DNA of 40,621 nt, taken from a phage. The notes under the pieces were generated by a model. It saw only the letters and a list, made by a program, of their open reading frames with translations. It was not told the DNA's origin and searched no databases. Positions 38,100 to 40,621 of the stretch are shown piece after piece. A program made the translations under genes and the position numbers. Within the stretch, counting starts at the first letter, position 1, and each line of letters starts with the position of its first letter. The stretch is from sequence record PX596819.2; one strand, 5' to 3'.

Positions 38100-38122
38100 G
38101 AGTCCTATAGTGATAGTTAAGT
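38100..38122 (-). promoter_or_regulatory. Phage-RNAP-type promoter directly upstream of the RNAP gene
   Basis: Minus strand CTTAACTATCACTATAGGACTCAAGGTC, a full match to the consensus core, placed between the last early ORF and gene 1 and oriented into gene 1. Confidence 0.55.
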
Positions 38123-38127
38123 CAGAA

Positions 38128-38520
38128 TTACTTGCATATCAGCTGGTTAGCGTGGAGATGACTGAAGTCACCGTGAGTCGTGTGCTTGATGGTTGACCGT
38201 TGGTCTATCGCCTTCCAGCCTGAGACCAGAAGTTTACCATCGTCGGTGATTGGTCGTCCACCATACGCCAGACACATCTGCTCGGACTTATGGCCCTCGG
38301 CCAGGAGTCGTGCTTGCAGAACCCGGTCGCGCTCCTGCTGTTGACGTGCGGTATGTGACGAGTGGCGATGAACATAAGCGGTCTTGTTCCCTGTCTTCTC
38401 CCAGTAGTTGCGACCGCGAGGGTCCGTGCCGACGTACTTCCACTCTACGCCGTTCTTATCAGTGAATGTGTGAAGCGATGTGATTGAGTCCATTGCATGT
38501 ACCAGATTTGCCATATTCAT
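38128..38520 (-). CDS. Hypothetical early protein (130 aa), His-rich, immediately upstream of RNAP
   Basis: Start overlaps the upstream ORF stop (TAATG); no motif I recognise. Confidence 0.5.
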   Translation of the reverse strand: MNMANLVHAMDSITSLHTFTDKNGVEWKYVGTDPRGRNYWEKTGNKTAYVHRHSSHTARQQQERDRVLQARLLAEGHKSEQMCLAYGGRPITDDGKLLVSGWKAIDQRSTIKHTTHGDFSHLHANQLICK

Positions 38521-38723
38521 TACAGTTTACTCCCAAGAGTTGCTATATCCCAGACGTTCGCTAAGTTGCGCATGAATCGTCCGTTAGGTTGACGCACAGT
38601 CCAGCGACCCAGACGTACATAGTTGAATTTGTAGACTTTACGCGCTTTGTGGATGTCTTTCACCAGCACGTAGGCGATAAGTCCATAGCCTATGGCTATC
38701 AATAGTGCAAGACTCATAGTCAT
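38520..38723 (-). CDS. Small early membrane protein (67 aa, N-terminal TM then basic tail)
   Basis: MTMSLALLIAIGYGLIAYVLV then KDIHKARKVYKF..; ATG overlaps the upstream mini-ORF stop (ATGA). The track shows a 106-aa TTG-initiated extension that I consider less likely. Confidence 0.45.
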   Translation of the reverse strand: MTMSLALLIAIGYGLIAYVLVKDIHKARKVYKFNYVRLGRWTVRQPNGRFMRNLANVWDIATLGSKL

Positions 38724-38824
38724 AAACCCCAGAACAGTTGAGTAAGGACAGGAAGTTTGCCGACTAGAGTAAACATTCCCCACGCTACGAAGCCTGAGAT
38801 AGTCCAGATGATTGCAGTGTTCAT
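38720..38824 (-). CDS. Mini-ORF encoding a 34-aa hydrophobic peptide (MNTAIIWTISGFVAWGMFTLVGKLPVLTQLFWGL)
   Basis: GGAG 7 nt upstream of the ATG; stop overlaps the next start; single TM-like segment. Below the ORF-track size cut-off. Confidence 0.35.
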   Translation of the reverse strand: MNTAIIWTISGFVAWGMFTLVGKLPVLTQLFWGL

Positions 38825-38899
38825 AGTTAACTCCTATCAATGCAAGTGGTAATCTTTGAGGCCACCTGTCAGTTAGATGACCTCTCGTCTATCACTCTC

Positions 38900-39271
38900 C
38901 TACACTTCTACCGCGACGGTTGTCATCTTGGTTACAGTAAGTCCACCAGCCAGCTCAACTGCATAGCGTATCGCCTCGTCTTTGGACCTGAAATCTTTAC
39001 CAGCAAGGTGGTAAATGTCGCCGTTTATTACTTTGGCTGGCTTGCGGCTAACTGCTATAGCGTTGCTAAGGGAAAGCTCACCCTTCGACCACTGAGAGTG
39101 CCAGCGGCATACGCTCTTAGGAGATACGTTGAAGTCACTGGCCACCTTCGCAAGCATAGAGTCAAGTCTAGAAGAGCTACATTGAGGCTGGCGCACCAAG
39201 TCGTATGCCTTTGCTACTCGTATTTTAAAATCTACCGTGTAGCTGTTGCGGCTTTTAGTAGTTGTGTTCAT
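38900..39271 (-). CDS. Early helix-turn-helix DNA-binding protein (IS3-type transposase HTH-like N-terminus)
   Basis: YTVDFKIRVAKAYDL...LAKVASDFNVSPKSVCRWHSQW matches the pattern I associate with HTH_Tnp_1-type domains; no transposase catalytic ORF follows. Confidence 0.45.
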   Translation of the reverse strand: MNTTTKSRNSYTVDFKIRVAKAYDLVRQPQCSSSRLDSMLAKVASDFNVSPKSVCRWHSQWSKGELSLSNAIAVSRKPAKVINGDIYHLAGKDFRSKDEAIRYAVELAGGLTVTKMTTVAVEV

Positions 39272-39344
39272 GAGTGTATCCTTTGTTAATTAATTAAATA
39301 AGTGACAATCAGTCAGGCCACCAGCATTGATGACCTGTAGTCTA

Positions 39345-39494
39345 TCACTTAGCGTGCAAACTGTCGTGTATGCGCTTGCGGCCATCATAGACCGCTTTCA
39401 GGTGACGCATAGCGGCATCATGGTTTAATTGCCCGTTCTTGACCATAATCCGGGCGTTGGTTACGTGGTGTTGACAGAGACCATAAGTTACCAT
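39345..39494 (-). CDS. Possible small basic ORF (about 49 aa) coupled to the end of the kinase-like gene
   Basis: ATG lies 2 codons before the upstream stop with GAGGTGAGG upstream; fills an otherwise empty 216 nt gap. Weak. Confidence 0.25.
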   Translation of the reverse strand: MVTYGLCQHHVTNARIMVKNGQLNHDAAMRHLKAVYDGRKRIHDSLHAK

Positions 39495-40012: not shown

Positions 40013-40209
40013 GTTGTTTATCCTATAGTTAGTGACTATCAGTCAGGGCCTTCAGATGTAGACTCAAAGACCCTGTAGTTAATCACTATCGCTAGCAAGC
40101 TAGCTATCGGCGCACATTAAGAGTTTATCCAGATTGTTAAAGAGCACTCCCTTCAGTCAGAGGACTTCAGGTAGACCATTTCAGTGTTGGTCATCACCAT
40201 TGTTTCGAT

Positions 40210-40246: not shown

Positions 40247-40497
40247 CTGCTTTCTGTCATCTGCCTGTTGTTCGTATGACTTATCAGGCTGTCTACTTAA
40301 CCGTGATGACCCGGCGTCTTCACTATCCGGTTGTTGCCGTGTCGTGTTGACGGAAGCTATTAGGCCATAGTCTAGACCTATAGTCAATAGGTAATTTGAA
40401 TTAATATCAATTAAGCTATCGTCGGCCCCATAGTGACTAAGAGGATATAGTCTTTGACTAAGATGTCTTCGACCTTAAGTCTATAGCTTTGTGTTTA

Positions 40498-40592
40498 TTA
40501 ACTGTAGGTCCTTGACTGTAGGCTGTGAGTGTCTTATGGTTGTGACTGTAGGTTAGTGAGACTGTAGGTTAGTGAGACTGTAGGTGTAGGAC
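40498..40592. repeat. Short direct repeats near the genome left end, including gactgtaggttagtga present about 2.5 times in tandem
   Basis: gactgtagg occurs five or more times in about 95 nt; analogous to the CCTAAAG-type repeats at the T7 left end. Confidence 0.5.
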
Positions 40593-40621
40593 GTAATGTT
40601 ATACTATATCACTATACAGAT

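Follow-up and report, generated by a model that had tools for sequence, protein, structure and literature searches.

The 40,621-nucleotide (nt) phage sequence in record PX596819.2, the whole of which is referred to here as the window, carries a chain of three short open reading frames (ORFs) next to its RNA polymerase (RNAP) gene. Two of them encode predicted small membrane proteins of 34 and 67 amino acids (aa). The window represents a K1F-like relative of T7 (Kayfunavirus, Studiervirinae), and the genome reads on the minus strand. When the locus was used in a megablast search, 209 phage records were matched, nearly all of them Kayfunavirus, with Escherichia phage pO2 the best match at 93.5% identity. 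The first-pass annotation had described the three ORFs as linked by overlapping stop and start codons, and reading of the minus strand confirmed both their positions and the overlaps. The features at the locus are as follows.

38844..38897, minus strand: RNase III processing-site hairpin of the R0.5 type, from its fold and its alignment with T7/T3 R0.5
38831..38835, minus strand: Shine-Dalgarno (SD) sequence AGGAG of the 34-aa gene, 6 nt before the ATG
38824-38720, minus strand: gene for a 34-aa hydrophobic mini-protein, 34 codons (MNTAIIWTISGFVAWGMFTLVGKLPVLTQLFWGL), read from the sequence
38723-38520, minus strand: gene for a 67-aa T3/K1F-type gp0.6, 67 codons (MTMSLALLIAIGYGLIAYVLVKDIHKARKVYKFNYVRLGRWTVRQPNGRFMRNLANVWDIATLGSKL), read from the sequence and matching PHROG 2385
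38520-38128, minus strand: gene for a 130-aa gp0.38-type protein, 130 codons, matching phrog_7066
38103..38119, minus strand: first (most upstream) consensus phage-RNAP promoter (TAACTATCACTATAGGA), between the 130-aa ORF and gene 1
38030-35349, minus strand: gene 1 for the 893-aa RNA polymerase, directly 3' of the three-ORF chain

The 34-aa and 67-aa ORFs share 4 nt in an ATGA junction (38723-38720), and the 67-aa and 130-aa ORFs meet in a TAATG junction (38522-38518), where stop and start share one base. The last base of the 0.6-type stop codon is the first base of the next ATG (TAATG or TGATG) in 27 of 28 Kayfunavirus-type loci, and in the loci surveyed the junction between the mini-ORF and the 0.6 gene always falls between a 7-nt overlap and a 3-nt gap. 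The only element upstream of the 0.6 start is a weak GGGG. The TAGGAG-TTAACT-ATG context before the 34-aa ORF is conserved among Kayfunavirus relatives; in K1F, which is one of them, it leads into a different mini-ORF. This arrangement suggests termination-reinitiation coupling along the chain, in which ribosomes ending one ORF would reinitiate on the next via the ATGA and TAATG overlaps. Another ATG in the frame of the 67-aa ORF lies at 38717; initiation there would give a 65-aa form, and most relatives are annotated from this codon.

The consensus TAACTATCACTATAGGA has 11 matches on the minus strand against 0.04 expected, and in the EcoDS1 and CR8 records a promoter is annotated at the same place as that at 38119-38103 in the window. 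This promoter is the 3' limit of the part transcribed only by the host RNAP and, as it lies downstream of the three ORFs, they belong to the class I region read by the host enzyme. On the other side, the 75-nt spacer 5' of the 34-aa ORF folds as a stem, an internal loop and a second stem (-26 kcal/mol, z = -2.7). It aligns with R0.5 of T7 and with the annotated 'RNase III recognition site R0.5' of T3, sharing the invariant blocks AGTGaTAgAC..AGG.C..GTGGCCT..GATT and indicating that the hairpin at 38844-38897 is homologous to T7/T3 R0.5. The 34-aa, 67-aa and 130-aa ORFs are therefore class I (early) genes placed between an R0.5-type site and the gene 1 promoter, in keeping with the early operon originally proposed, and their products would be among the first proteins made after infection. 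RNase III would be expected to cut the early transcript at the hairpin, creating the 5' end of a processed mRNA. If it cuts as in T7 and T3, the 34-aa gene would be the first cistron of that mRNA, a position equivalent to that of T7 gene 0.5.

The 34-aa ORF is short and its product matched nothing in PHROG or Pfam, which would be consistent with the small ORFs having arisen by chance in intergenic or leader sequence that precedes gene 1. However, tblastn found the peptide in 39 phage records with 47-94% identity, and 37 of these matches cover at least 80% of its length. Of 13 related-phage loci, aligned without gaps, 11 keep an uninterrupted frame of exactly 34 codons. The exceptions are phage 6925, where the start codon is ATT, and 02_Eclo_IJM, where 1 nt is deleted and the record has the RNAP gene annotated only as a short fragment. 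The ratio of nonsynonymous to synonymous substitution rates (dN/dS, or omega; Nei-Gojobori method) was 0.06-0.30 for the ORF, with dS saturated in distant pairs, and the family shares the pattern W7, S10-G11, G16, K23-L-P-V-x-[TS]-Q29. Conservation in related genomes, which had been named as a check on the first-pass annotation, was thus found for the 34-codon frame, and both small genes are under purifying selection. Together with the strong SD sequence, the conserved coupling and the PHROG match of the 67-aa ORF, these comparative data already contradict an origin as chance frames, which is hardly credible. By the same comparisons the 34-aa ORF is a real, conserved gene, and purifying selection justifies its annotation as such.

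A more restricted role, in which the 34-codon ORF is only a leader that delivers ribosomes to the weak 0.6 start and the peptide itself is functionless, would suit the ATGA overlap, the GGGG element and the fact that unrelated peptides can fill this position. It would not account for the low dN/dS, for a length fixed at 34 codons or for the W..SG and KLPVxTQ motifs, which persist between genera at 47% identity. In CR44b the 34-aa gene is retained although 0.6 has been lost by deletion, and some phages (L025-L027) carry 0.6 with no ORF upstream. Purifying selection and the CR44b arrangement contradict a pure leader ORF, which is considered improbable.

In the window no stop interrupts the 0.6 frame as far upstream as 38840, and the records of CR44b (0.41), phiHAO1-1 (gp05) and phage 6925 have this frame annotated instead of the 34-aa gene. 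The real gene might on these grounds be a TTG-initiated 106-aa extension of 0.6 (38840-38520). Alternatively, it might be a -1 frameshift fusion, as a canonical X XXY YYZ slippery heptamer, G GGT TTA, stands directly before the stop of the 34-aa ORF (38720-38729, minus strand) and a slip there would fuse the ORF to gp0.6. However, omega exceeds 1 in the other two frames of the 34-aa ORF DNA. Stop codons occur in one of these frames in the window and, in some relatives, in both, and the extension frame is interrupted by stops in CR8 and EholP_HHH. In phages with an unrelated peptide upstream (families B and C below), the 0.6 protein starts at the methionine of MS(L/I)... The heptamer occurs in the window, CR44b and phiHAO1-1 and is missing from 7 other relatives (3 of 10 in total). 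The long in-frame extension was rejected on the omega values and the stops, and the programmed frameshift on the distribution of the heptamer; that either represents the real gene is very unlikely.

Annotation of the 34-aa gene is uneven. It is annotated in CR8, HC12, CtuP_B1 and EholP_HHH and not in the LM33_P1, ZH4 and YZ1 records, so that, with the three wrong-frame records, several GenBank entries either miss the gene or use another frame. The earlier suggestion that both mini-genes would be missed by ORF size cut-offs therefore holds for the 34-aa ORF, in about half of the related records examined, but not for the 67-aa gene, which almost all relatives have annotated, either as gp0.6 or as a hypothetical protein. 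Close variants of the 34-aa peptide were found in a 15-billion-protein collection, always named 'hypothetical protein'. When IMG/VR was scanned with degenerate DNA patterns for the gene, CR44b and CR8 alone were recovered, and JGI metagenomes yielded one more Kayfunavirus genome, which has the same layout. The peptide reaches the membrane-helix threshold at residues 4-22, where its highest Kyte-Doolittle score over 19 residues (KD19) is 1.66, and the CR8 copy scores 2.19. The KLPVxTQ motif and then a hydrophobic tail follow the predicted single helix.

The 67-aa protein matched phrog_2385 with E = 3.1e-32 over profile positions 5-69 of 70, and its counterpart goes by the name gp0.6 in EcoDS1 and K1F. 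The CR8 counterpart, 0.71, is annotated with one transmembrane (TM) helix (TMHMM). The 67-aa protein was aligned by BLASTP with the T3 gene 0.6 protein (41% identity, E = 5e-10) and with phiYeO3-12 gp0.6A (E = 5e-9), and hhalign against the T3-type subfamily of 65-68-aa proteins from Przondovirus/KP32-like phages gave a probability of 98.6% (E = 9e-16). By these matches, the 67-aa protein is a member of the T3/K1F gp0.6 family. A tblastn search found it in 297 phage records and an indexed protein search in 118 clusters, all 'hypothetical'. The family (PHROG 2385) is small; an exhaustive profile search of 1.84 billion representatives returned 15 clusters only, one of which, a 910-aa repeat protein (P0120), is spurious. 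Every member with an identifiable source comes from a T7-like phage. Two natural chimeras were also seen. In P0112 a K1F-type gp0.6 N-terminal half is joined to a T3-type C-terminal end at the NGRF motif, and in P0114 a gp0.4-like N-terminus is fused to a gp0.6 C-terminus through a deletion, and both show active recombination in the early region.

The hydrophobic segment of the 67-aa protein lies at residues 3-21 (best KD19 2.32), consistent, as for the 34-aa peptide, with the small membrane proteins originally predicted. The tail (residues 22-67) holds 11 Lys and Arg residues versus 2 Asp and Glu, and the protein has an isoelectric point of 10.8. Invariant columns of the family are Y13, which is inside the membrane helix, G48, R49, F50 and A61, and the basic domain carries the motif W/F-T-V-R-x-x-N-G-R-F. 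The C-terminal domain is under strong purifying selection (dN/dS 0.04-0.28) and the anchor is more relaxed. An AlphaFold2 model built from a 27-sequence alignment had a predicted local distance difference test score (pLDDT) of 86.6, with a helix at residues 2-30, three strands at 32-54 and a helix at 57-66. A BFVD search with this model returned uncharacterised T7-like phage proteins only, plus the phiYeO3-12 'putative 0.6B', and no solved structure resembling it was found by structure search. Hydrophobicity, charge and the model together predict an N-terminal membrane anchor followed by a basic cytoplasmic domain.

The genetic context of the 0.6 gene was surveyed in loci around K1F-type, T3/Przondovirus-type and T7-type 0.6 genes. 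In the K1F and T7 groups, different peptides, belonging to at least four hydrophobic families, were found encoded directly 5' of 0.6.

Family A: 34 aa, the window peptide (CR8 gene 0.705 family), 39 phage-collection records
Family B: 29 aa, MSVGYWVCLAPVIW..., 94 phage-collection records
Family C: 55 aa, K1F gp0.36, 71 phage-collection records
Family D: T7-gp0.5-like, 82 phage-collection records

No homology among the four families was detected by hhalign (probabilities < 5%). A family D peptide with 39% identity to T7 gp0.5 over 41 aa lies upstream of a K1F-type 0.6 gene in L023, whereas the slot is empty in L025-L027 and holds two peptides in L018. In a T7-type genome (L039, coordinates 1046-1204), the slot peptide is 52 aa long (MAILITVALFAVAGWYSESRK...), with a hydrophobic helix at its N-terminus and a tail of charged residues; its ORF overlaps 0.6A by 4 nt, and it may represent a fifth family. 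The flanks, namely the RNase III site and SD sequence upstream and the 0.6 gene downstream, are constant around these changing occupants. The same gp0.6 N-termini occur with different mini-peptides and there is no tight co-variation, which, with the retention of the 34-aa gene in CR44b, indicates that the mini-peptide and gp0.6 are separable modules and not obligate partners.

It is tentatively suggested that the interval between the R0.5 site and gene 0.6 is a dedicated, hot-swappable expression slot for unrelated inner-membrane peptides of 29-55 aa, each possibly a host- or competitor-specific effector, with the 34-aa KLPVxTQ peptide representing an uncharacterised effector class. Such effectors could act in superinfection exclusion, in neutralising membrane-bound defence or in modulating membrane-anchored gp0.6. 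The strongest rival to the host-takeover function proposed below is related to this idea and takes the slot as a swappable cassette for competition between phages or evasion of defence. The peptide, perhaps with gp0.6, would block entry of a superinfecting genome or neutralise a membrane-bound host defence, and the family would be exchanged according to host or competitor. Such a function would fit cassette-like replacement, as at least four mutually unrelated families stand between conserved flanks, some phages have no peptide in the slot and others two, these genes are the first to be expressed, from the host RNAP, and identical gp0.6 N-termini are paired with different mini-peptides. However, this support is circumstantial, no family member has a demonstrated exclusion or anti-defence role, and swapping is common for all early accessory genes of the T7 group. 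The cassette is therefore regarded as possible but doubtful.

The reading preferred here, at a probability of about 60%, is that the locus is an R0.5-headed class I chain of the 34-aa mini-protein, a T3/K1F-type gp0.6 and gp0.38, in which both small products are accessory host-takeover factors of the inner membrane. Within minutes of infection, both would be inserted into the inner membrane, the 34-aa peptide as a helix that crosses it once, with K23 and KLPVxTQ facing the cytoplasm, and gp0.6 as an N-out/C-in anchor presenting its basic alpha-beta3-alpha domain to the cytoplasm. An accessory role at the inner membrane, in host takeover or in exclusion, is inferred, and both products are likely to be non-essential, because the mini-gene is missing in some relatives (L025-L027), CR44b is without 0.6, and the slot is swapped among unrelated peptides. 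The gp0.6 domain would most likely bind a membrane-proximal cytoplasmic host component. An MreB/elongasome-type target is a speculative candidate, by analogy of position and name with T7 gp0.6, a growth inhibitor that interacts with MreB and whose expression gives lemon-shaped cells (bioRxiv 10.64898/2026.09.14.751387; PMC9372555). The mini-peptide would most likely act on a host protein of the inner membrane or on the entry of competing phages.

Several observations weigh against this host-takeover reading. The helix of the 34-aa peptide is marginal by KD19 (1.66) and its summed Hessa value is positive (+0.99). The RNA over the 0.6 start folds no better than shuffled sequences (z = 0.16), and a local stem is not visibly conserved by eye in comparison with CtuP_B1. 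Occlusion of this start by mRNA structure was accordingly discarded, and the coupling is drawn from the geometry alone. T7 gp0.6A is the single source of the suggested MreB link, and the 67-aa protein gave no BLASTP alignment with it at E <= 100. In hhalign the 67-aa family and T7 gp0.6A reached a probability of 0.4-1.2%, and in a shuffle test 2516 of 5000 shuffles scored as well as the real pair. As BLASTP, hhalign and shuffling were all negative, the 67-aa protein was rejected as a homologue of T7 gp0.6A.

The third gene of the chain encodes a 130-aa protein that matched phrog_7066 (E = 2e-43) and is annotated as gp0.38 in EcoDS1 and CR8. This family carries no annotation and has a conserved C-terminal part of ~85 aa and at least three different N-terminal forms (130, 108 and 83-86 aa in length). 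Its AlphaFold2 prediction (pLDDT 57) was too poor to be used in a structure search. In several relatives an HNH-type homing endonuclease gene (140-144 aa) is inserted exactly between 0.6 and 0.38, with the TAATG junction preserved, at the following positions.

L012, 1704-2126: HNH insertion
L022, 1686-2108: HNH insertion
L027, 1686-2108: HNH insertion
L030, 1686-2120: HNH insertion

In CR44b, an apparent deletion extends from the 0.6 N-terminus into the end of an HNH gene of this kind, of which the remnant ...KYLQENQQ is left, and the 34-aa gene is intact.

Upstream of the chain, a 123-aa ORF (38900-39271, minus strand) is flanked by two RNase III sites and shows weak similarity to a helix-turn-helix (HTH)/transposase-HTH domain (Pfam HTH_23, E = 0.002, below the cut-off). 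It was found in few relatives only (pO2 and SH3-like), and so looks like an inserted accessory gene. Two further hairpins of the R0.5 family (AGTGATAGAC...GGTC...GTGGCC...GATTGTCACTT) are located at ~39300-39350 and ~40030-40090 on the minus strand, preceding the 123-aa ORF and a 174-aa ORF, respectively. From their positions, processing appears to yield several mRNAs from the early transcript, as it does in T7. Near the left end, a degenerate phiOL-like motif GTCACTATGGGG at ~40423-40434 is the sole such motif visible. At the left genome end itself (window 40530-40600, minus strand), there are three tandem CCTACAGTCTCACTAA-like repeats typical of the terminal regions of T7-group phages.

The first-pass annotation had compared the mini-genes with T7 gp0.4, an FtsZ inhibitor, while remarking that the sequences were not the same. 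The remark was correct, as neither the 34-aa nor the 67-aa ORF matches gp0.4. The comparison itself was misplaced, because gp0.4, although likewise a small class I protein of a T7-group phage, is not hydrophobic (best KD19 0.83), unlike the two window products. The gp0.4 homologue in this genome is a separate 49-aa ORF (39345-39494, minus strand), which matched phrog_5058 (E = 2e-27), has 39% identity to T7 0.4 over 41 aa and is named 0.4 in CR44b and 0.35 in EcoDS1. An overlap of 7 nt joins its start to the stop of the 174-aa ORF that precedes it. K1F has been reported to mislocalise FtsZ (PMC9372555). A literature search for the function of K1F/T3 gp0.6 or of the mini-peptides returned nothing beyond T7 gp0.4, gp0.5 and gp0.6.

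T7 gp0.6A resembles the 67-aa protein in gene name, in small size and basic character, and in its position after a coupled hydrophobic mini-gene, but lacks a membrane helix (KD19 0.35). T7 0.6A and the gp0.6 family have in common a faint collinear TVxxPxGF motif, and the C-terminal NK[VI]GxxYxxTH of T7 0.6A is shared with T3/Przondovirus-type members and not with the window protein. The exhaustive gp0.6-family profile search did not recover T7 0.6A, and even T3 gp0.6 showed only borderline C-terminal similarity to it, in NK[VI]G..Y..TH (16 of 5000 shuffles). As homology between the 67-aa protein and T7 gp0.6A was not detected, the shared name '0.6' reflects position more than demonstrable homology. 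The T3/K1F gp0.6 family, predicted to be membrane-anchored and without detectable homology to the MreB-binding T7 gp0.6A, thus corrects the assumption that any protein named gp0.6 is an MreB inhibitor.

The closest relatives of the 67-aa protein are T3 gp0.6, phiYeO3-12 gp0.6A and the gp0.6 proteins of K1F and EcoDS1, which share with it a length of 64-67 aa, the N-terminal membrane helix with its invariant Tyr, RD-x-x-K after the helix and the (W/F)TVRxxNGRF motif. The class I position after R0.5 is also shared, and the gene order is the same in K1F, EcoDS1, CR8 and T3. Kayfunavirus gp0.6 copies are 83-97% identical to the 67-aa protein, and its last 15 residues follow the Kayfunavirus pattern NLANVWDIATLGSKL, unlike the ANKVGxFYxATH of T3/Przondovirus. 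In T3, unlike in the window, gene 0.6 is not preceded by a mini-ORF.

For the 34-aa peptide, a counterpart is encoded by gene 0.705 of CR8, a 34-aa hypothetical protein of the same length with 47% identity and the shared pattern W..SG......G......KLPV.TQ. The two genes also have the same downstream neighbours, namely 0.71 in CR8 (gp0.6-type, with one TM helix) and then 0.38. However, CR8 belongs to another genus, Caroctavirus, and has a 3-nt spacer instead of the ATGA overlap, and 0.705 is preceded by a 0.7-like gene whereas the window gene is preceded by the 123-aa HTH ORF. T7 gene 0.5, described as 'an uncharacterized class I gene' with a putative TM helix (PMC12798971), is likewise a hydrophobic first cistron after R0.5, with a stop codon that overlaps the gene 0.6 start as ATGA. 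Its product is 47 aa long with two hydrophobic stretches, as opposed to 34 aa with one predicted helix. Homology between the two was not detected (hhalign probability 2.4%), and tblastn of the 34-aa peptide against T7-type loci matched nothing at the 0.5 gene.

The most useful points to emerge are the variable slot, whose small membrane peptides form a compact set that can be tested in screens for host takeover, exclusion or antibacterial targets, and the placement of the 67-aa protein in a family without detectable homology to T7 gp0.6A. The right comparators for the mini-genes are T7 gene 0.5 and T3/K1F gene 0.6, and the pair in the window is the local version of the long-known, uncharacterised gene 0.5/0.6 pair of T7/T3-type phages and not a new kind of system.

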